DNA of 64,000 nt from an uncultured Lachnospiraceae bacterium (GCA_944383835.1 CALWRE010000158.1:6008-70007); one strand, 5' to 3'; numbered from the stretch's first letter, positions 2,405 to 13,778 are shown. Made by a program: numbers and translations. Notes: generated from the sequence alone by a model not told the origin.

Positions 2405-2431
2405 AGAGAGCGGAAAACCGCTCTCTTTTTT
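2405..2431. terminator. Intrinsic terminator between convergent genes
   Basis: Stem AGAGAGCGG / CCGCTCTCT, loop AAAA, then a T run. Confidence 0.6.
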
Positions 2432-3176
2432 AATGGCAGCGGTCCTGGTATTCGGAAGGGGACATGCCCACCAGCTTTTTGAAGGTGCTGCCGAAATAGG
2501 CCACGTCCCGGTAGCCGACCAGCTCCGCCACCTCGTAGACCTTGCGGCGGCAGTCCCGCAGAAGGTTCATGGCCATATGGATCCGGTATTGGGTGAGGTA
2601 GCCGATGATCGTATAGCTGGTCTCCTTCTTGAAAATGTGGCTCAAATGGCTCTCGCTGACGCCCAGGTGTCGGGCGATGGGGGTGATGCTGATATCCTGG
2701 TCCCGGTAGTGTTCGGAGATATAATTCATGGCCTGCAGCACATATTTGCTCTTGTCCCCCTTGGGCAGAGGGAGCAGGTCGCCGGGGGTCAGGGCGGTTT
2801 GCTCCTCCTCCCGTTCATGGATGCGGCCGATGGCGGCGGCCAGCTCCTGATCGCGGAAGGGCTTGAGCAGGTAGTCCACGGCTCCCAGCTGCAGGGCGCT
2901 GCGGGCGTATTCAAAGTCGCTGTAGGCGGTCAGCAGGATCACATAGGCGCGGCAGCCCTGGGCCCGCAGTTCGCGGACCATTTGCAGGCCGTCCATCTTC
3001 GGCATGCGCACATCGGTGATGATCAGGTTGGGATTGTACCGTTTGACGGCGGCCAGCCCTTCTTCCCCATTGGAGGCCTCCCCGGCCACAATGCAGCCCA
3101 TGGAGGCCCAGTTTACGCCCAGGACAATTCCTTTGCGGACGACGGGCTCATCGTCTACTACCAGTACTTTAAGCAT
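2430..3176 (-). CDS. Response regulator, receiver + AraC-type HTH (YesN-like)
   Basis: Start MLKVLVVDDEP overlaps the kinase stop. It has receiver aspartates and DVRMPKMDG, with a C-terminal AraC HTH (ARHLGVSESHLSHIFKK...YFGSTFKK). Confidence 0.9.
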   Translation of the reverse strand: MLKVLVVDDEPVVRKGIVLGVNWASMGCIVAGEASNGEEGLAAVKRYNPNLIITDVRMPKMDGLQMVRELRAQGCRAYVILLTAYSDFEYARSALQLGAVDYLLKPFRDQELAAAIGRIHEREEEQTALTPGDLLPLPKGDKSKYVLQAMNYISEHYRDQDISITPIARHLGVSESHLSHIFKKETSYTIIGYLTQYRIHMAMNLLRDCRRKVYEVAELVGYRDVAYFGSTFKKLVGMSPSEYQDRCH

Positions 3177-4872
3177 TTTCGTCTCTCCTCCTTTGTATCG
3201 GCAGCCGCAGGGTGGCGCAGCAGCCCTCTCCCGGCCGGGACTGAATGGAGAGGCCGTAGGGCTCCCCAAAGTGCAGCCGGATAATACTATTCACATTGAA
3301 TAACCCCAGATGGGAACCGCGGCTGGAGGGGTCTTTTTCCGGCCGGCGGTTTAAGTCTGCAAGCTGTCCGGGAGGGATGCCGCAGCCGTTGTCCGATACG
3401 GACAGAAACAGGTCGCCGTCCTTTGCCTCGGCCCAGAGCTTGATGTAGCCGTCGTTTTTATCCGCTACCCCGTGGATGATGGCGTTTTCCACCAGGGGCT
3501 GCAGAACCATCTTGGGAATCAGGCAGCTCTGGAATTCCTCGGGAATATCGATCTCACAGGTGAAGCGATCCTCGAAGCGGATGGATTGGATGGCCAGATA
3601 GCGGTCAATAAGCTCCAGCTCCTGCTCCAAGGTAATGATTTCGTCTCCGGAAATGCCGGCTCGCAGGATAATGGCCAGGTCGGAGGCCAGCTCTGCAATC
3701 TGCGGGACGTGGTGGGCGACGCCCAGCCATTTCATGGTGTCTAGGGTATTGTAGAGAAAATGGGGGTTGAGCTGGGCCTGCAGCATCCGCAGCTGAGTAT
3801 CGTTGAGTTCCTTCTGCCTGGCCACGGACCGGGACAGATTCATCCGGTATTCATCGGTCATGTGATTGAAGCTGCCCACCAGCCGCCCGAATTCGTCCTC
3901 CCTGCTGGTATCCAGATGGACGTTGTAATTGCCCTTCTGCACTTCGCCCATGGCCTCGTCCAGCTGCCGGATCGGACGGAACAGGCGGCGGCTCAGAAGC
4001 CAGGCGCACCACAGGCAGAGGAGGAGGCACAGAAGCCCCATCAGAAGGCTGACGGCGTAGATGGTATGCACGACGGTGGAGGTAAAGGTCATCGGCTGCT
4101 GGAGAATCAGAGCCATGCCGGATTCCGGATGGGAGGATGCATAGTAATAGTAATCGCCTCCGGCTCCGGTCAGCTCCTCCCCGGCAAGAAACTGCCGGCG
4201 CAGGCTTTCCGTCACGTTCTCCGCCTGGGCGGGCTGCGAGTGATAAATCGGCCACCAGAAGGGATCCATCAGGATAATATCGCTGGCTGCCGCGTACAGG
4301 TTTTGAAAGAGAAGGTCAAAGTTTTCGGAGGTCATGGACGCCGTCAGATAGCCCAGGATGCTGCCGTCGTAGCTTCGCACGGCGCGGGCGGCGGTCAGGG
4401 CCAGATTCCCATCCCCGGAGCGAAAGACCAGGCCCTCGGCCTGCGAAGCAGCGTAGAGGATATCCCAGCCGGTGCTTAAAGCGCCTGTGGGAACCGTTGC
4501 ATCCGTGGTGTAGAGGCAGAGGCCTTCGCTGTCATAGATATCGAAGCGTGCGTACTCCCTTTCATCGTCGGTGACCCGGAACAGGAGCTGGTAGAGGACG
4601 CGGGAATCCGCATTTTTCTGGCGGAGGACGCTGCGCACCGCGGTGCTTTCGCATAAGTCCCCCGTTATTTCCTCGAAGGAGAGAAGGAGGCTGTCCAGGG
4701 CCTCGTCCAGGGCGGAGAGCTGGCTGCGGGCCTCCCTTGCCAGGCTGACCTCGCTGCGGACCACTTGCATCTGCATCATCAGAACATTGCAGAACAGTAG
4801 GGGCAGGAGGGTGACCAGAAGAAGGGTCAGGAAAATCTGGTTGCGGAAGGAGCGGCGAATCCATCGTTTCAT
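3169..4872 (-). CDS. Sensor histidine kinase (YesM/LytS-like: 2 TM, HAMP, His_kinase, HATPase)
   Basis: Has an N-terminal TM, a large extracytoplasmic domain and a second TM, then HAMP (RPIRQLDEAMGEV), an H-box QLNPHFLYNTL and an ATPase N/G-box (ENAIIHG...DNGCGI). There is an ATGA overlap with the upstream SBP gene. Confidence 0.9.
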   Translation of the reverse strand: MKRWIRRSFRNQIFLTLLLVTLLPLLFCNVLMMQMQVVRSEVSLAREARSQLSALDEALDSLLLSFEEITGDLCESTAVRSVLRQKNADSRVLYQLLFRVTDDEREYARFDIYDSEGLCLYTTDATVPTGALSTGWDILYAASQAEGLVFRSGDGNLALTAARAVRSYDGSILGYLTASMTSENFDLLFQNLYAAASDIILMDPFWWPIYHSQPAQAENVTESLRRQFLAGEELTGAGGDYYYYASSHPESGMALILQQPMTFTSTVVHTIYAVSLLMGLLCLLLCLWCAWLLSRRLFRPIRQLDEAMGEVQKGNYNVHLDTSREDEFGRLVGSFNHMTDEYRMNLSRSVARQKELNDTQLRMLQAQLNPHFLYNTLDTMKWLGVAHHVPQIAELASDLAIILRAGISGDEIITLEQELELIDRYLAIQSIRFEDRFTCEIDIPEEFQSCLIPKMVLQPLVENAIIHGVADKNDGYIKLWAEAKDGDLFLSVSDNGCGIPPGQLADLNRRPEKDPSSRGSHLGLFNVNSIIRLHFGEPYGLSIQSRPGEGCCATLRLPIQRRRDENA

Positions 4873-5972
4873 TGGCGTTCCTCCTCCCAAATCTGTTCCC
4901 AGGACTGAAGAATCTCCTCCTGGCTTTCAGAAGACAGGACAAGGTCATAGGGGAAGAGGTCAAAATCCGCCTCCGCCCCCTCCGGCAAAAGGTCGCCCGA
5001 AACCGGGCGGCGCAGGCAGGTCTGCCGGATATATTCCTGTGCGTCTTGGCTCAGAAGAAAATCGATGAAGGCCTGGGCGTTTTCCTCGTGGGCGCAGCCT
5101 TTCAGGACGGCGGCCCCGTCCGCTACGGCGCAGACGCCCTGGGAGGGGTAGACGACGGCGATGTCATAGCCGGCTTCCATGGCCCGCAGGGCGTCGTCCT
5201 CCCCGGTAATGCCGATATAGCAGTTGCCGTTGGCTACCTCACGGATCACATCGCTGGAGGAGGCGAGAAGTTTTCCGCCCAAGTTGGCGGCAAAGGCCCG
5301 CAGGATCTCCTCCTCGCTTCCGGGCAGGGCCTGAAGGAGGGAGGCCAATACGGTGTAGCTGGCGTCGGAGGCGGAAGGATCGGCAAAGGCAATCCGCCCC
5401 ATCCATGCCGGATCCAGCAGGCTGTCCATGCCGGAAGGAGGATGGACCCGCGCAAGCTTGGGATTGTAGATCAGAACCAGAGGGACGATGGAGAAGGGGG
5501 TCGAGGTTCCATCCGGCGGAAGGCAGGTAATCTGCATCTCTTCCAGCAGGCTGCTTTGATAGGCGGAAAACAGTTCCGTATGGGCGGCCAGGCTGTCTGC
5601 CCTTGCACCGAACAAAAGATCCCAGTCAGGGGAGCCCTCCGCCCCGCGGATCTCTTCCAGCAACTCCAGGGTTTCCCCGGTTTCCACTGTGACCCAGATG
5701 CCTGTCCTCGCTTCAAACTCCCGGACGATCGGCTCGTAGACGGAGGGAGAAAGAGAGGTGCAGATATGCAGGCGGGCGTCCTCCGCTGGAGGTTCGAGGG
5801 TGCGGGAGGAGGCGTCCGGCTGGCTGCAGCCGGACAAAAGGAGAAGGAAGCTGGCGGCGGCCATCAGCGCAGCCCACCGTTTTATCCTCCCCTTCTTTCC
5901 CAATACTGTCCAAGCATTCCTCTTTATTGTGCTTTTCTTTATCGTGCTTTTCTTTATTGTGCCTCTCTTCAT
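4869..5972 (-). CDS. Lipoprotein, ABC-type substrate-binding protein fold (Fbp/Afu/thiamine-like), likely sensory partner of the kinase
   Basis: Has lipobox LLLSGC and SBP-like sequence (ICTSLSPSVYEPIVREFEARTGIWV...LLFGA...). The stop overlaps the kinase start. The start is uncertain: Met at 5972 gives a long basic n-region, and 5864 is an alternative. Confidence 0.65.
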   Translation of the reverse strand: MKRGTIKKSTIKKSTIKRNAWTVLGKKGRIKRWAALMAAASFLLLLSGCSQPDASSRTLEPPAEDARLHICTSLSPSVYEPIVREFEARTGIWVTVETGETLELLEEIRGAEGSPDWDLLFGARADSLAAHTELFSAYQSSLLEEMQITCLPPDGTSTPFSIVPLVLIYNPKLARVHPPSGMDSLLDPAWMGRIAFADPSASDASYTVLASLLQALPGSEEEILRAFAANLGGKLLASSSDVIREVANGNCYIGITGEDDALRAMEAGYDIAVVYPSQGVCAVADGAAVLKGCAHEENAQAFIDFLLSQDAQEYIRQTCLRRPVSGDLLPEGAEADFDLFPYDLVLSSESQEEILQSWEQIWEEERQ

Positions 5973-5992
5973 TGCGCTCTTCTTCCTCGTGC
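5918..5992. repeat. Five tandem 15-bp units (consensus on + strand TTTTCTTTATYGTGC)
   Basis: Units at 5918, 5933, 5948, 5963 and 5978. On the minus strand they read as in-frame basic pentapeptides (GTRKK SAMKR GTIKK STIKK STIKR). Confidence 0.8.
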
Positions 5993-6292
5993 CCCTTTTC
6001 CTTGTTTCCCTCTTCCGTCCGGCTTCCCGCCGTATTGAAAATTTTCCGGAATCTTTACTTTTATTATACATAATCTTTTCCAAAAGCACAAATCTATTTC
6101 GGAAGTCTTGCGGAGGCCTCTTGCAAATATGGCAAAAATGCACATAAAAGTCATATAAACAGAAGAAATTATGGATAGTTTTAACAGAATATCCGCAATA
6201 AAAGCAGTTTTGTCCTGTTTCCATGGAAAGAGGATTCCTTTAGAATATAAATATAACTATTAGTGTCTTTTTTAAGAAAAGGAGAAAGAGAT

Positions 6293-7579
6293 ATGAAAAA
6301 GGTTCTTGCATTACTGCTGGCCCTTGCCATGGTGCTCTCGCTGGCTGCCTGTTCCGGCGGCGGGGATGAGACGGCGGCGGGCGGAGGAGAAACCTCCGGC
6401 GGCGGCTCCGCAGAGACTTCTGGCGGCGGCGACTCCGAGGAGGTAAAGGATTATTCCGACTATACGATCCGCATCTACTCGAATTCCAACTCCACCGAGA
6501 GAGCCACCTGGCTGGTCAATGAGGCCAGAGACGCAGGTTTCACAATCTCGATGGATGACAACAGCGTCATCTCCGGCGATACGGCCGTGATTTCCGCTGC
6601 TAATGAAAACCAGGACGGCGACCTGATCTTCGGCCTCAATGAGACCCGCTGGAGCCAGCTGGTCGACGGCGTCTATGAGAATCTGTCCCTGGTTGAGTGG
6701 ACTCCTTCCTGGGCGGAGGAGGTCGGCGAGTACGCGTATCCCGGCTATGCCTACGGCCTGGTTATCCAGAACATCCTGATGCTCTACCGCACCGACGAAT
6801 ACGGTACCAACGGGGAAACCCTTCATTTTGAGCATTGGGCCGACATCGTGGACTGCGGCTACACCTGGTACCGCCAGGGAAAGGTGGGCGGCACTACCAA
6901 TTCCAACATCAACAACTCCATGCTGTATTCCTTCGTGGATCCCGATTCCCCTGCGGGCGGCATCTCCGTGGACGGCTGGAGAACATTATGGCAGTATTGC
7001 CAGAACGGTGTATTCACCGGTGACGACTATGGCTTCGACGCATTAAACCGCGGCGACGTCCAGGTTTCCACCTTCTATTCTTCCTCTCTGTACGGCAATA
7101 TTGACGCGGCGGGGGAGAGCTCCGAGCATCCGCTGCTTGGCACCCTGGAGCCGGAGAACTGGGATCTGGTGCAGATCGACGACGGCACCTACTACATCGC
7201 TGAGTACATCGGCATCCTGGATAAGGAAGGACGTACCGAGGAGGAGACCGAGGCGGTTATGGCCTTTGCCGAGTGGTTTGGTTCCGCCGACGTGCAGGCT
7301 GCATGGGGCGAAGAGTTCGATTCCTATCCCTGCAACCAGGCAGCCGCCGAGATCCTGTATCCCGACGGAGTACCGTCCATCTACACGCTGCCGAACTTCG
7401 CTCTGACGGAGGTCGAGGGCACCGGCATGACCTATGCGGAATACGTTGCCGCGCACTCCAGCGAGTGGACCAACATCATGACCAACCTGGGCTTCTACTG
7501 GGCCGATATGAACAGCCCGAATCCGGAGCCTGACTGGGATAACCTTGACTGGGCTACACTGACACAGGCCGCATCCTGA
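6293..7579 (+). CDS. ABC transporter substrate-binding lipoprotein (Fbp/Afu-type family)
   Basis: RBS AAGGAGAAAGAG, then signal plus lipobox LSLAAC and a Gly/Ser/Glu linker followed by an SBP fold. It is the first gene of the operon with the ATPase and the fused permease. Confidence 0.85.
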   Translation: MKKVLALLLALAMVLSLAACSGGGDETAAGGGETSGGGSAETSGGGDSEEVKDYSDYTIRIYSNSNSTERATWLVNEARDAGFTISMDDNSVISGDTAVISAANENQDGDLIFGLNETRWSQLVDGVYENLSLVEWTPSWAEEVGEYAYPGYAYGLVIQNILMLYRTDEYGTNGETLHFEHWADIVDCGYTWYRQGKVGGTTNSNINNSMLYSFVDPDSPAGGISVDGWRTLWQYCQNGVFTGDDYGFDALNRGDVQVSTFYSSSLYGNIDAAGESSEHPLLGTLEPENWDLVQIDDGTYYIAEYIGILDKEGRTEEETEAVMAFAEWFGSADVQAAWGEEFDSYPCNQAAAEILYPDGVPSIYTLPNFALTEVEGTGMTYAEYVAAHSSEWTNIMTNLGFYWADMNSPNPEPDWDNLDWATLTQAAS

Positions 7580-7698
7580 CAAGTACGGCCGGTAAGCTGA
7601 AAGGATAATTTGTCGATTATGTGTCGATTATGGCGGGCCGGATTTCCGGCTCGCCATGTCTTTGACGGACGTACAGAATAGAAAAGGAGTTGTCACGT

Positions 7699-8733
7699 AT
7701 GATCAGGCTCAATGACATCGTAGTAAAATTCGGGGATTTTACTGCCCTGCACAATATCAACGTACATGTGAAGGAGGGAGAGTTTTTCACCTTCTTAGGC
7801 CCCTCCGGCTGCGGGAAGACCACGACGCTGCGGACGCTGACCGGCTTTATTGATCCGGTGCAGGGGTCGGTGATGGTCGGCGGAAAGGATATCACCCATG
7901 TTCCCATCGAGGAGAGGAATATCGGCATGGTATTCCAGAGCTACGCCCTCTTTCCGACAATGACGGTGTACGACAACATTGCCTTTGGCCTAAAGGTAAA
8001 GAAATTGAAGAAGGCGGAGATCGACCGCAAGGTGCGGGAGCTGGCGAAGAAGGTGGACTTGACCGACGATCAGCTGAAAAAAGCGGTTTCCCAGCTGTCC
8101 GGTGGCCAGCAGCAGCGGGTGGCCATCGCCCGCGCCCTGGTTACCGATCCGTCGATTATTTGCATGGACGAACCCCTTTCCAACCTGGACGCAAAGCTCC
8201 GCGTACAGCTGCGCAACGAGCTGAAAAAGATGCAGGAGGACTTTGGCATCACCACGATCTACGTGACCCATGACCAGGAGGAGGCCCTGACCCTCTCCGA
8301 CCGCATCGCCGTTTTCAACAAGGGAGTAATCGAACAGGTGGGAACCCCCAACGAGGTCTATAACCATTCGGCCACCGAGTTCGTCTGCAACTTCATCGGC
8401 GATATCAACCGGCTGTCCACCGAGGTAGTGGACGAGATGAACCGCAGAGGGGGAAGCGTGGACAGAGGGGCCCACAACTATATCCGCCTGGAGCGCATTC
8501 ATGTCAATGTGGAACCGAAGGAAGGGGATATGTGCTTTAAGGGAACCGTGCAGAAGCGGGAATACTACGGCCTCTATATCAAATATTACATCGATCTGGG
8601 TTCTCAGATCATCAAGGTAATCGAGAAGAATGACGGCATCAATATCTACGAGGCAGGACAGACCGTGGAGGCGGTGATGAATCCCAGGGATATCATGGCC
8701 TACCCGGCGGGAGGCGAGGAGGTGGCTTCATGA
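7699..8733 (+). CDS. ABC transporter ATP-binding protein (PotA/FbpC/AfuC-like)
   Basis: Walker [10 protein letters not shown], signature LSGGQQQR, Walker B IICMDEP and H-loop VTHD, with a C-terminal TOBE-like domain. Confidence 0.9.
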
Positions 8734-10673
8734 ACAAGGCGAAAGCCAGGCGGCTGAATCCGCAGATACTGATCAAGGTGCTGGGCGTGGCGTTCTTTGC
8801 CTACCTGTTTTTTGGCTTCATGCTGATTCCCTGCTTAAATACGCTGACCAGCATTTTTACGACAAGGGATGCGTCCGGGGAGATAGACCCCTGGGCCGTG
8901 ATCCGCTTCTTTTTCGCCGGCAATATGGGACGGTATGTGTTAAACTCCCTGAAGCTGGCCGTATGCCTGGTGGTGACAGTCAATATCGTCGGTGTATCCA
9001 TCGTCCTTTTGACCGAGTATTTCGATATCAAGGGGGCGCGCATCCTGCGGCTGGGCTATATGACCACCCTGATCTACAGCGGCGTGGCCCTGGTTACCGG
9101 CTATCTGTTCCTATATGACAGCGACGGCATTTTGACCAATCTCCTGGTCAATGCCTTCCCGAACATGGATCCCAACTGGTTTTCCGGGTTCAACGCCGTC
9201 CTCTTTACAATGACCTTTGCCTGTACCAGCAATCACGCTCTTTTCCTGCGAAACGCCATCCGGGGCATCGATTACAATACGGTGGAGGCGGCCCGCAACA
9301 TGGGGGCGAAGCCCTTTACCGTGCTCCGGAAGGTGGTTTTCCCCACCCTGCTGCCGACGATGTTCTCCCTGACCATCATGACCTTTATCACAGGCCTGTG
9401 CGCCATGTCGGCCCCTACCCTGCTGGGCTATGATTCCATCAATCCGGAGATCGTGCGTCTGGCCGGCTCGTCCACGGCGGACGAGGCCTTCCCTCAGGCC
9501 AGGGCGGCTTTGCTCTCCATTATCCTGGCGATGTTCACCATCGTCCTGCTGACGATCCTGTCCTCCTATGAGAGAAAGGGGCATTACCTGTCGGTCTCCA
9601 AGACCAAGGCCAGGCTGCAGAAGCAGAAGATCACTAATCCGGTCGCCAATGTGATCGCTCATATTTACGCCTATATCCTCTTTGTGATCTACATGATTCC
9701 CGTAGTGATGATCGTTGTTTTCTCCTTCCAGACCTACGGGGCGATCCGGATGAAAAAGCTGGATCTTAGCAACTGGACGCTGATCAATTTCTTTGGCACC
9801 CAGGACTACGAATACCTCACGTCCCGCGGGACCTACCGGCTCCGGGAGGGGGCGATTTCCGGCCTCTTTTCCAATGAGGCTACCCTGGGCGGCATCAAGA
9901 TCAGCTTCATCATGTCGGCCATAGCCGCTTTGCTGGCCTGCATCATCGTGGTGGTGGCCTGCAATTACATTTTCAAAAACCGCAATAAGAAGAGGGGGAC
10001 GGTTCTGGAGTACAGCCTTCTCTTCCCCTGGCTGCTGCCTACGATACTGATCTGCTATTCCTACCGTATTTTTTTCAACAGCAATGACGTCTGGTATGTG
10101 GGCAATCAGAGCCTTTACTATGCGGAAAATGTGCGGTTCTTGATTATTATGGCCTATACGGTGACGAAGCTGCCTTTCTCCCTGCGTATGATAAAGGCCT
10201 CGTTCTACGCGATAGACGAAGAACTGGAGGACGCGGCGAGAAACCTGGGGGCCAGCGGGCTGCGAACGTTCCTAAAAGTGAAGCTGCCGATTATTCTGCC
10301 CAGCGTCATGGCCGTGTTCGCCCTGAATTTCAACTCCCTCTTTACGGAATACGACATGTCGGCCACCTTTGCCAGTTCCTATGGAACTACCTACGCCATG
10401 GTGATCCAGAGCATGTGCGAGGAGGAGGGAATGTACGGCTACAACGTCAACGCTTCGGGACGGCGCTGCGCCTCCACCGTCTTTATCATGGTAGTTTCCG
10501 GCATCATCCTCTATCTGGTATACGGCGTCGGCGGCCGCGATCTGGGCGACCGGCTGGAGCTGCGGGATAAGAGGAAGAAGAGGAGAGAGAAACTGATGGC
10601 CCATTTCAAGAGGCGCTCCGAGCCGAAGGCCGCGATGTCTGTCCGAAGGGAGGCAAAGGAGGCCCAGGGATGA
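8730..10673 (+). CDS. Fused double-domain ABC permease (FbpB/AfuB-like)
   Basis: 647 aa with about 12 TM segments and two EAA-type loops (EAARNMGAKPFTVLRKVVFP and DAARNLGASGLRTFLKVKLP). ATGA overlap with the ATPase gene. Confidence 0.9.
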   Translation: MNKAKARRLNPQILIKVLGVAFFAYLFFGFMLIPCLNTLTSIFTTRDASGEIDPWAVIRFFFAGNMGRYVLNSLKLAVCLVVTVNIVGVSIVLLTEYFDIKGARILRLGYMTTLIYSGVALVTGYLFLYDSDGILTNLLVNAFPNMDPNWFSGFNAVLFTMTFACTSNHALFLRNAIRGIDYNTVEAARNMGAKPFTVLRKVVFPTLLPTMFSLTIMTFITGLCAMSAPTLLGYDSINPEIVRLAGSSTADEAFPQARAALLSIILAMFTIVLLTILSSYERKGHYLSVSKTKARLQKQKITNPVANVIAHIYAYILFVIYMIPVVMIVVFSFQTYGAIRMKKLDLSNWTLINFFGTQDYEYLTSRGTYRLREGAISGLFSNEATLGGIKISFIMSAIAALLACIIVVVACNYIFKNRNKKRGTVLEYSLLFPWLLPTILICYSYRIFFNSNDVWYVGNQSLYYAENVRFLIIMAYTVTKLPFSLRMIKASFYAIDEELEDAARNLGASGLRTFLKVKLPIILPSVMAVFALNFNSLFTEYDMSATFASSYGTTYAMVIQSMCEEEGMYGYNVNASGRRCASTVFIMVVSGIILYLVYGVGGRDLGDRLELRDKRKKRREKLMAHFKRRSEPKAAMSVRREAKEAQG

Positions 10674-11410
10674 AGATTCGGAACATTGTCTTTGATATGG
10701 GAGAGGTACTGATCCGCTTTACTCCCTCGGAATTTATCCGCCGTCTGGGGATCGAGGGGGAGGACGCCGCCCTCCTGCGAAAAGAAGTCTTTGGCCGGGT
10801 GGAGTGGGTGCAGTTTGACCGGGGGACGCTAAATGAGGAGCAGACGGCCGCCTCCGTCTGCGAGCGGCTGCCTGTCCGCCTGCACGAGGCGGCCAGAGAG
10901 CTGGTCTTTCACTGGTGGAGCCGTCCTCTGATCCCCATTGACGGGATGGAGGAGCTGATGGGTGAGTTAAAAGGGCTGGGCTATGGAATTTACCTGCTCA
11001 GCAACGCCAACCGCCGTCTGCGGGAATACCTGCCCCGGATACTGGGGAGCCAGTACCTGGACGGCCTGGTCGTCTCGGCGGAGGAACTTTTGTTAAAACC
11101 CCAGAGAGAAATCTATCAGGTCTTATATGACCGCTACGGGCTGAAGCCGGAGGAATGCTATTTCATCGACGACTCCCCTCTCAATGTGGAAGGGGCCCTG
11201 TGCACCGGAATGCGGGGGAGCGTCTTCGACGGGGACGTGGAACGGCTGCGCCGCGAGCTGCGGGCGGCGGGGATCCCGGTTAGGGACGCATCGGCTGCCG
11301 CCGTATCCGGGGGCGATGCTCGGACTGCCGGCCCTTTGGCTGCAGAAATAGATGCAGAAATAGAAACAGAAACAGGAACGAGATGGGAAAAACGGGAGAA
11401 GGAAATATGA
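10670..11410 (+). CDS. HAD-superfamily hydrolase (YihX-like sugar-phosphatase type)
   Basis: Motif I FDMGEVL (the D-x-G variant seen in YihX-type enzymes), LLSNAN, and motif IV FIDDS. ATGA overlaps on both sides. Confidence 0.75.
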   Translation: MKIRNIVFDMGEVLIRFTPSEFIRRLGIEGEDAALLRKEVFGRVEWVQFDRGTLNEEQTAASVCERLPVRLHEAARELVFHWWSRPLIPIDGMEELMGELKGLGYGIYLLSNANRRLREYLPRILGSQYLDGLVVSAEELLLKPQREIYQVLYDRYGLKPEECYFIDDSPLNVEGALCTGMRGSVFDGDVERLRRELRAAGIPVRDASAAAVSGGDARTAGPLAAEIDAEIETETGTRWEKREKEI

Positions 11411-12828
11411 TAAAATTTGGAACCGGGGGCTGGAGGGCCATTATTGGGGATGATTTTACCAGAGAAAATATCTCGATTCTGGCGAAGGCCATGGCGGAGA
11501 AGATAAAGGCGGAAAAAGCGGACGAAAAAGGAATTGTCATCGGCTATGACCGGCGGTTTTTGTCCAAGGAGACGGTGATGTGGGTCTGCGAGGTGATGGC
11601 GGCCGAGGGAATTGTCTGCCATTTCGTCAACCGTTCGGTTCCCACGCCTCTGATTATGTTTTACGTGATGCAGCACGGCTACCCTTACGGAATGATGGTG
11701 ACGGCCAGCCATAACCCGGCCCTGTACAATGGAATCAAGGTCTTTACCGCCGGGGGGCGGGACGCCGACGAGGGGCAGACGGCGGATATCGAAAGATATA
11801 TCGCTGCGGTGCGCCCGGATGCGATTCGCCGGATTGAATATCCCCAGGCGGTGGAAAGGGGGCTGGTCCATGAGTTCTATCCGATGAACGAGTATATCGA
11901 CGATATCATGGGCAAGATCAATATGGAGGCAATCAAGAATGCCCAGCTGCGGATCGCCCTGGATCCGATGTACGGGGTCAGCGAAACGGCGCTGGGGACC
12001 ATCCTGATTTCCGGCCGCTGCGATCTGACAGTGATCCACCGGGAACACGACACCCTCTTTGGCGGGAGGATGCCGGCCCCGTCGGAGGATACCCTGGGGA
12101 TGTTAAAGACCTCCGTACTGGACCGCCATCTGGATCTGGGCATCGCCACCGACGGGGATGCGGACCGTCTGGGCGTCATCGACGACAAGGGACATTATCT
12201 TCATCCCAACGATATTCTGGTGCTGCTGTACGCCTATCTGCTGCAATACCGGAAGTGGAGCGGTCCGGTGGTCCGCAATATCGCCACCACCCACAGGCTG
12301 GACCGCCTGGCCGCCGCATACGGGGAAACCTGCTATGAGGTGCCGGTGGGCTTTAAGTATATTTCCGCCAAGATGCAGGAAACCGGGGCTATCCTAGGCG
12401 GGGAGTCCTCCGGCGGCCTGACCGTGGCCGGCCACATCAACGGCAAGGACGGGGTCTATGCCGCCTCCCTGCTCATTGAAATGCTGGCGGTAACCGGAAA
12501 GAGGCTCTCCGAGCTGATGGCGGAGGTATCCGCCCAATGCGGGGAGAGTTATATGGAGGAGCATTCCTGCCGCTTGACCGCCCAGGTAAAGGAATCGCTG
12601 CAGCGCCGCCTCTTTGAAGAAAAGGAACTGCCGGATATGGCACCCTATGAGGTGGATCATGTGTCCTACCTGGACGGCTGCAAGGTCTATTTCAAGAACG
12701 GAGGCTGGATCATCGCCCGCTTCTCCGGCACCGAGCCTCTGCTCCGCATTTTCTGCGAGATGCCCGCCAGAGTCGAAGCCGCCGCCATGAGCGAGAGGTG
12801 GATGGGGTATTTTGGGATTAGCGGGTGA
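11407..12828 (+). CDS. Phosphoglucomutase/phosphomannomutase family protein
   Basis: Active-site loop TASHNPALYNGIK, metal loop ATDGDADR and sugar loop GGESSGG. Confidence 0.9.
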   Translation: MIKFGTGGWRAIIGDDFTRENISILAKAMAEKIKAEKADEKGIVIGYDRRFLSKETVMWVCEVMAAEGIVCHFVNRSVPTPLIMFYVMQHGYPYGMMVTASHNPALYNGIKVFTAGGRDADEGQTADIERYIAAVRPDAIRRIEYPQAVERGLVHEFYPMNEYIDDIMGKINMEAIKNAQLRIALDPMYGVSETALGTILISGRCDLTVIHREHDTLFGGRMPAPSEDTLGMLKTSVLDRHLDLGIATDGDADRLGVIDDKGHYLHPNDILVLLYAYLLQYRKWSGPVVRNIATTHRLDRLAAAYGETCYEVPVGFKYISAKMQETGAILGGESSGGLTVAGHINGKDGVYAASLLIEMLAVTGKRLSELMAEVSAQCGESYMEEHSCRLTAQVKESLQRRLFEEKELPDMAPYEVDHVSYLDGCKVYFKNGGWIIARFSGTEPLLRIFCEMPARVEAAAMSERWMGYFGISG

Positions 12829-13568: not shown

Positions 13569-13715
13569 GCTTCTGGCGCACCGTTAGGAGCAAAATACTC
13601 TGGGCTGGCGTTAACCCGTCCTCTGCCGTATCTATCGCAAGAGAAGGCCTCGAAGGAGAAATTATTTGGAAAATCTTATAAAGATGTGCGAAAGGCCTGA
13701 AAAGGCCAGAAAAAA

Positions 13716-13748
13716 GGGCCGGTGCAGCAGCTGCACCGGCCCTTTTTT
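13716..13748. terminator. Bidirectional intrinsic terminator
   Basis: 12-bp perfect stem GGGCCGGTGCAG / CTGCACCGGCCC, flanked by an A6 run and a T6 run. Confidence 0.85.
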
Positions 13749-13778
13749 AGGTGCGCCCGGCGGGCGCACGTTCTAAGG

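Follow-up and report, generated by a model that had tools for sequence, protein, structure and literature searches.

The subject of this work is a putative sugar-phosphate sensing and uptake locus of eight genes, found in a stretch of 64,000 nucleotides (nt) from an uncultured Lachnospiraceae bacterium (GCA_944383835.1 CALWRE010000158.1:6008-70007); the whole stretch is referred to here as the window. The locus consists of two divergent modules (Table 1). The genes for a lipoprotein solute-binding protein (SBP1), a sensor histidine kinase and a response regulator lie on the minus strand, and those for a second solute-binding protein (SBP2), an ABC ATPase, a fused double permease, a phosphatase of the HAD type and a phosphohexomutase on the plus strand. 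Open reading frames (ORFs) and Pfam matches were in agreement with the eight genes and the domains that a first-pass annotation of the window had placed here.

Table 1. Genes and sequence features of the locus, with coordinates counted from the first letter of the window
Feature	Position	Strand	Description
Response regulator	2430..3176	-	REC + AraC-type helix-turn-helix (HTH) (YesN/HptR type), 248 amino acids (aa)
Sensor histidine kinase	3169..4872	-	567 aa; transmembrane helix (TM) 1, ~235-aa extracytoplasmic domain, TM2, HAMP, His_kinase PF06580, HATPase
SBP1	4869..5972	-	Lipoprotein solute-binding protein, HptA homologue; probable ligand sensor; start codon uncertain
15-bp tandem repeat	5921..5984	.	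4.3 copies (TRF), at 5' end of SBP1 ORF, encodes KKSTI repeats
Conserved box	6184..6221	+	Probable response-regulator site; two CAG-containing half-sites 20 nt apart
Importer-operon promoter-like site	6218..6246	+	Weak -35 TTTCCA, 17-nt spacer, -10 TAGAAT
SBP2	6293..7579	+	Lipoprotein solute-binding protein of the importer, 428 aa; ribosome-binding site AGGAG at 6280
GC-rich hairpin	7630..7657	+	12 bp, in SBP2-ATPase spacer
ABC ATPase	7699..8733	+	PotA/PhnT2/AfuC-like; ABC_tran + TOBE_2
Fused double permease	8730..10673	+	647 aa, two BPD_transp_1 halves, two EAA loops
HAD-IA phosphatase, YihX-like	10670..11410	+	Motif I FDMGEVL (DxGxV)
alpha-D-phosphohexomutase (PGM/PMM type)	11407..12828	+	473 aa; four PGM_PMM Pfam domains

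The overlaps reported earlier for the minus-strand genes were found again, with 4 nt between SBP1 and the kinase and 8 nt between the kinase and the regulator. The plus-strand genes had been described as all joined by 4-nt overlaps. This was observed at the ATPase/permease, permease/HAD and HAD/mutase junctions, but SBP2 and the ATPase are separated by a spacer of about 119 nt. It contains the 12-bp GC hairpin, a stable element in minimum free energy and centroid folds alike, which may act as an mRNA stabiliser or partial terminator and raise the amount of SBP2 relative to the membrane parts. The likely start of the ATPase is the ATG at 7699, which is preceded by AGGAG, and not the TTG at 7690; the gene call in L004, a contig of the same species, agrees (344 aa).

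In a distribution scan with one genome per species, relatives of SBP2 were found in 458 genomes, and neighbourhoods were counted in the best 80 of these. Nearly all of the 80 carriers are gut Oscillospiraceae, Lachnospiraceae and other Clostridia, including the cultured Enterocloster asparagiformis DSM 15981, in which the locus is found at 3.34-3.36 Mb of NZ_CP102272. The closest genome by SBP2 (94%) is an uncultured metagenome-assembled genome labelled Lachnospiraceae, and identical or near-identical proteins were found in gut metagenome assemblies. The SBP2-ATPase-permease core was present in 80/80 loci and the sensor triad adjoined it in 50 of the 70 with enough flank, so that the gene arrangement is not due to chance; a survey of this kind had been proposed in the first-pass annotation, and the neighbourhood proved conserved. 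In about two-thirds of the sensor-bearing related loci the sensor is co-directional with the importer and not divergent from it. Comparison of Lachnospiraceae with Oscillospiraceae, across orders, gave 72-94% identity for the transport proteins and only 32-60% for SBP1. The high identity of SBP2, ATPase and permease suggests either horizontal spread, perhaps recent, or unusually strong constraint.

The sensor triad

SBP1 matched the Pfam families SBP_bac_6, SBP_bac_11, SBP_bac_8 and SBP_bac_1, and carries the lipobox LLSGC. When PDB sequences were searched with phmmer, the top matches were the HptA entries 6LKI and 6LKG (E = 5e-21), which outranked FutA1, the pyridoxal phosphate (PLP)-binding P5PA and AfuA. 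In these two structures S. aureus HptA is bound to the outer domain of the kinase HptS; HptA binds glucose-6-phosphate and galactose-6-phosphate and bridges two HptS dCache domains, and the system switches on uhpT (PMC8050422). HptA, a cluster-D solute-binding protein that serves as an extracellular sensor, is therefore the best solved relative of SBP1, although the alignment extends over only about 240 residues and at low identity. The start codon of SBP1 is uncertain because of the tandem repeat at the 5' end of the ORF. The window and contig L004 show a 15-nt difference between the kinase and SBP2 genes, which suggests copy-number variation of the 15-bp repeat.

The outer domain of the kinase was modelled with AlphaFold2 (residues 1-305, 13 database homologues), giving a predicted local distance difference test score (pLDDT) of 82.6. 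The top Foldseek matches of the model were all dCache/double-PDC sensor domains, namely DctB, rpHK1S-Z16, KinD and Tlp3. The extracytoplasmic domain models with confidence as a member of the dCache fold class, and HAMP comes next, an arrangement shared with HptS. There is no detectable sequence match of the outer domain to HptS, and the likeness of the model to HptS holds at fold-class level only. For the kinase core, 6SWJ was the nearest PDB entry. The regulator showed Pfam matches to Response_reg (103.6 bits), HTH_18 (75 bits) and HTH_AraC, and is 70-95% identical across the related loci. HptR likewise combines REC with AraC.

Judged from these relationships, the triad is an SBP-dependent three-component sensor and a homologue of S. 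aureus HptA-HptS-HptR; the homology of SBP1 to HptA, the dCache kinase and the REC-AraC regulator all agree with the sensor role assigned to it in the first-pass annotation. The gene order is also shared. In S. aureus, hptASR is divergent from uhpT (PMC8774646, table 1), and in the window the genes for binding protein, kinase and regulator follow in the same order, divergent from the transporter that they very probably regulate.

A conserved box upstream of the importer operon

The 320 nt located 5' of SBP2 were aligned for 78 sequences, comprising 77 related loci and the window. A box was found in which the consensus of 59 loci reads tgaCAGaATt..c.g.atAATcGCAGttTTGtCC.GTTcc, with TATAAT 25-26 nt downstream. 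The distance from the box to the -10 element is fixed across the 59 loci, regardless of whether the sensor is divergent or co-directional. The 38-nt box of the window reads ACAGAAT-N9-AAAAGCAGTTTTGTCC-TGTTTC and runs into the weak -35 (6218-6223), which is followed by the -10 at 6241-6246. It was the single match to the pattern in the 64-kb window, where 0 were expected by chance.

The box was observed to accompany the sensor. The fixed pattern was found in 47 of the 54 sensor-bearing sequences (53 loci and the window), and six more carry obvious one-base variants. Among the 24 loci with no sensor in the fetched stretch, the box is absent from 17, and in nine of these 17 it is replaced by a perfect TTGACA-N16-18-TATAAT promoter (L044, L051, L052, L057, L062, L064, L069, L074 and L026). 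In such loci expression of the importer seems to be constitutive or under different control. Since the box co-varies with the presence of the sensor, there is strong comparative support for control of the importer operon by the regulator. The triad thus very probably controls the divergent operon, as had been predicted.

The geometry of the box fits an activator on two half-sites, two helical turns apart, beside the -35, and the weakness of the -35 would fit an activator-dependent promoter. The AraC-type regulator is the presumed protein to bind at this box. HptR binds uhpT at -67 to -96 and activates from a site upstream of the -35 (PMC6291074); similarly, the box in the window abuts the -35.

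The importer, its enzymes and the probable cargo

SBP2 gave a weak Pfam match to SBP_bac_8 (33 bits), and direct phmmer comparison with PDB sequences returned nothing relevant. More than 1,700 homologues were found, the top 120 at 73-100% identity. Among 1.84 billion representatives at 50% identity the family forms one full-length cluster (659 bits), and the next scores are 114 bits or lower. Its distant relatives (23-29% identity) are SBP_bac_8/6 lipoproteins. A bridging profile that included them matched the AfuA-like 8X1A, P5PA, FbpA, SfuA, an aminoethylphosphonate binder and AfuA, with E values from 1e-15 to 5e-22, and SBP2 can therefore be placed as a divergent cluster-D solute-binding protein. 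The earlier statement that both SBPs share one broad fold was valid at the level of the Pfam clan, but when the SBP2 family was compared with SBP1 by hhalign, the signal peptides were all that matched. The AlphaFold2 model of SBP2 (37 close homologues) reached a pLDDT of 63, and its Foldseek matches, with TM-scores of 0.3-0.45 and a root-mean-square deviation of at least 11 Å, support the designation 'type II SBP' only.

In AfuA, Ser37 and Thr150 bind the phosphate while His205, Asp206 and Glu229 bind the sugar (PMC4546632). Profile alignment placed the phosphate-binding Ser37 and Thr150 on invariant Ser/Thr residues of SBP2 (S94 and T201/T202), and the essential His205-Asp206 pair on Ser264-Ser265; the equivalent of Glu229 was ambiguous. 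In addition, SBP2 is about 60 residues longer than AfuA and lacks a direct sequence match to it. On sequence grounds SBP2 is a member of a tightly conserved orphan family and not an AfuA orthologue.

The ATPase matched ABC_tran (127.7 bits) and TOBE_2 in Pfam, and its best NCBIfam model was PhnT2 (356 bits, under the cut-off of 457.7). The EAA loops of the permease read 'EAARNMGA' and 'EDAARNLGA', and the protein is 80-94% identical in all related loci. The designation of the system as an Afu/Fbp-type importer is thus appropriate for the fused permease and the TOBE-type ATPase, but does not extend to the ligand residues of SBP2, where Ser-Ser stands for His-Asp.

The HAD protein (Pfam Hydrolase/HAD_2) had its best PDB matches in E. 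coli YihX (2B0C/8PNO, E = 3e-10), and the four HAD motifs all fell in the alignment. YihX is an alpha-D-glucose-1-phosphatase, and its unusual DxGxV motif I is common to the window protein. Across 62 orthologues none of the four catalytic motifs varies. A phosphonatase (PhnX) was considered for this gene and ruled out, as no such model was among the NCBIfam matches. The mutase has Pfam domains I-IV and carries the motifs TASHNP (phosphoserine loop), DGDADR (metal loop), GGESSGG and RFSGTEP, so that sugar and phosphate loops are present too; its best PDB matches were 1TUO and 1WQA, and it scored 297 bits with the archaeal-GlmM model, under the cut-off of 439. Phosphatase and mutase had both been regarded as hard-wired into the operon. 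For the phosphatase this was supported, its gene lying after that of the permease in 58 of the 67 loci with enough sequence. The mutase, by contrast, is an occasional partner: a mutase of the window type comes after the operon in no more than 4/57 related loci, a second PGM type of 560 aa lies upstream in six, and some PGM/PMM, of two types, is present in 13/80. In seven loci the gene after that of the HAD protein encodes a type I phosphomannose isomerase.

A second importer, of the AfuA type, was found beside the sensor or after the HAD gene in 17 loci (for example L022, 279-4364; L045, 427-4503; L037, from about 15100 onward). The SBPs of these neighbours keep all five ligand positions in 17/17 cases (T, T, H, D, E), four being identical and Ser37 being replaced by Thr. 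The occurrence of genuine AfuA-type importers beside the SBP2 locus indicates that the specificity of SBP2 differs from that of AfuA. Together with the missing His-Asp pair, it makes it probable that the cargo lies outside the AfuA substrate set. Upstream of the AfuA-type operons there is a promoter of consensus sequence, TTGACA-N17-TACAAT, together with a conserved GC-hairpin leader that has GGGAAA..GATTGGAGGA at its end. The regulator box is missing there, and a regulon shared with these operons was ruled out on this basis. Searches with Rfam detected no known RNA in 5973-6292, in the SBP2-ATPase spacer or in the leader of the AfuA operon.

No iron, phosphonate (phnW/phnX type) or vitamin-salvage genes were found among the recurrent neighbours in the 80 loci. 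The neighbours that do recur, namely PGM/PMM, phosphomannose isomerase and AfuA-type importers, place the locus in hexose-phosphate metabolism. The evidence leans somewhat towards a phosphorylated sugar, a hexose or a close relative, as the cargo. The best explanation overall, which we favour by a modest degree, is that the locus is a two-module sugar-phosphate sensing and uptake system of a gut Clostridia bacterium.

Several observations weigh against this interpretation. Ligands in the cluster-D family also include iron, PLP, thiamine and aminoethylphosphonate. The predicted pocket of SBP2 was read from alignments, its model being poor, and the SBP1 positions equivalent to the AfuA ligand residues vary among SBP1 orthologues. 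HptS was not recovered from PDB sequences by an outer-domain profile of 17 kinase orthologues (sole match 3LIF, E = 0.018), and no HptS chain was among the top 50 Foldseek matches of the outer-domain model. The HAD protein falls far under the cut-off of the NCBIfam YihX equivalog (43 versus 295 bits), and the mutase and isomerase are present in a minority of loci only.

The same sensor wiring could serve a non-sugar organophosphate or phosphonate, such as 2-aminoethylphosphonate, PLP, a glycerophospho compound or a nucleotide, which the HAD protein would dephosphorylate after import. The best NCBIfam models are indeed the PhnS2/PhnT2/PhnU2 set, all under cut-off, the PLP-binding P5PA and the aminoethylphosphonate-binding protein belong to the best PDB relatives of SBP1 and SBP2 alike, and the conserved partner is the HAD protein while sugar-specific enzymes are occasional. 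However, it is the sugar-related genes and AfuA-type importers that recur beside the locus and not those for phosphonate or vitamin use, the closest solved relative of the HAD protein is a glucose-1-phosphatase, and the closest characterised sensor binds hexose 6-phosphates. A cargo of this class is considered rather unlikely.

Still less probable is an unphosphorylated carbohydrate, with mutase and phosphatase acting on products phosphorylated inside the cell. The large size of SBP2 (about 380 residues when mature) and its many invariant Trp, Tyr, Asn and Ser residues would suit such a ligand, and oligosaccharide-binding proteins are included among the Foldseek matches of its weak model; that model, with the TM-scores given above, is too poor to carry weight. 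Permease and ATPase, moreover, follow the fused Fbp/Afu/Pot type, including a TOBE_2 ATPase, and not the CUT1 sugar type, and no glycoside hydrolase or phosphorylase recurs beside the locus.

Ferric iron, finally, is a most improbable cargo: some family members are named 'iron(III) transport system substrate-binding protein' by JGI and proteins of the FbpA and FutA types turn up among its neighbours by structure and by profile, but the YYY of M. catarrhalis FbpA, and with it the Tyr-Tyr position of a ferric pocket, aligns (by alignment only) to F261-Y262-S263 within an F-Y-S-S-S stretch of SBP2, no iron-related gene recurs in the 80 loci, the same operon carries a phosphatase with invariant catalytic motifs, and both AfuA and HptA were at first wrongly annotated, as binders of iron or metal (PMC4546632, PMC6291074). 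The doubt that the first-pass annotation had cast on iron is reinforced by the recurrence of the YihX-like HAD, PGM/PMM and phosphomannose isomerase genes and by the genuine AfuA-type importer in 17 loci.

In the flanks of the locus, a cobalamin riboswitch (RF00174) was detected at 1064-1257 on the plus strand (112 bits, E = 7e-28), just 5' of a DUF4430 gene (about 1374-1871) that is followed by a 166-aa ORF (1873-2373). The minus strand carries CobW-family genes some kb downstream of the locus, according to the gene table of L004. A Thr_leader match at 13620-13749 on the plus strand (29.7 bits, gathering score 55, E = 0.04) is probably due to chance.

Comparison with known systems and proposed function

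The sensing half of the locus is of an already known kind (HptARS), and control of a nearby ABC importer by an SBP-dependent three-component sensor has precedents as well. A difference from HptRSA lies in the target, which is the UhpT antiporter in S. aureus and, in the window, an ABC importer with its own SBP and cytoplasmic enzymes. With AfuABC, the hexose/heptose-phosphate importer of Actinobacillus, Citrobacter and enterohaemorrhagic E. coli, the system shares its transporter architecture: the SBP belongs to cluster D, the double permease is fused, and the ATPase has a regulatory domain at its C terminus. Both have been annotated as iron transporters. It differs from AfuABC by the in-operon phosphatase, sometimes with a mutase, and by the dedicated three-component sensor, besides the differences in the binding protein described above.

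The XylFII-LytS-YesN system of C. beijerinckii, AraPST of Geobacillus and CuaD-CuaS-CuaR of R. cellulolyticum (PMC10384115) follow the same logic. In each of them an SBP that takes no part in transport works with a kinase and a regulator, both of the YesM/YesN class, to turn on an ABC importer that is encoded alongside and equipped with an SBP of its own. Their sensors are Peripla_BP- or CUT1-type SBPs for neutral sugars, whereas that of the window belongs to cluster D. XylFII-LytS in particular, which had been offered as the analogue, combines a Peripla_BP_4 protein with a four-helix-bundle outer domain (PMC8050422), in contrast to the SBP_bac_6/11 protein and the dCache domain found here; the analogy is sound for the design, but the system is a more distant relation than HptA-HptS-HptR. 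B. cereus SpsRK-SpsABC was examined as the closest system and ruled out, its regulator being of the OmpR type. It resembles the locus in that glucose-6-phosphate (G6P) as well as fructose-6-phosphate (F6P) is sensed in Firmicutes, with induction in the gut and the need for an SBP-like lipoprotein, and it also occurs in clostridia (PMC4049939). Besides the regulator, it differs in the extra protein SpsA, the target (the MFS antiporter SpsC) and the gene layout.

The combination had been called uncharacterised in Firmicutes. For the sensor this is too broad, as it is a homologue of the G6P-sensing HptA-HptS-HptR of S. aureus. Regarding the whole pairing, literature searches returned no description of an HptA-type sensor with an importer of Afu/Fbp architecture, an extremely conserved orphan SBP and an in-operon YihX-like phosphatase.

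If the cargo is a sugar phosphate, the signal flow could be as follows. An extracellular phosphorylated sugar would bind the lipoprotein SBP1, and loaded SBP1 would dock on the dCache dimer of the kinase and change its contacts, as with HptA. The kinase would then phosphorylate the REC-AraC regulator, which in this form would bind the box by the weak -35 and turn on the importer operon. SBP2 would hand its cargo to the ABC importer formed by the ATPase and the fused permease with 12 TM. Inside the cell the mutase, where present, may move the phosphate between C1 and C6 (1-phosphate/6-phosphate) and so lead the sugar to glycolysis. The phosphatase may free sugar and phosphate, or limit the build-up of sugar phosphate from a one-way ATP-driven pump. 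The direction of signalling, the activation, the class of ligand and the roles of both enzymes are those that we infer from the comparisons above.

A bolder proposal, to which only a small probability is given, is that SBP2 represents a new substrate class for Fbp/Afu-type importers, namely a sugar phosphate that AfuABC refuses, for instance a hexose 1-phosphate such as glucose-1-phosphate or mannose-1-phosphate. It would explain the likeness of the HAD protein to glucose-1-phosphatase, the occasional 1-phosphate/6-phosphate mutase or phosphomannose isomerase, and the AfuA importers alongside. A literature search for a glucose-1-phosphate ABC importer returned nothing relevant. If this were true, the phosphatase in the operon would act as a safety valve for a one-way ATP-driven sugar-phosphate pump, and horizontal transfer would have carried such a system through the gut Clostridia.

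The system is widely distributed among gut commensals, as seen from the 458 species-level genomes with SBP2 relatives. The 72-94% identity of the transport proteins across orders implies strong selection or recent horizontal spread, and the nutrient therefore probably matters in the gut. The ligand of the orphan SBP family could be identified by direct testing, and the locus would be a second case, and a cultivable one, of the HptA-type mechanism, the bridging of a dCache kinase by an SBP. Until now, work on the uptake of sugar phosphates has been done for the most part in pathogens (UhpT, AfuABC, HptRSA). If commensal Clostridia have a sensor-controlled system dedicated to it, this would suggest cross-feeding on phosphorylated metabolites that host or microbial cells release.

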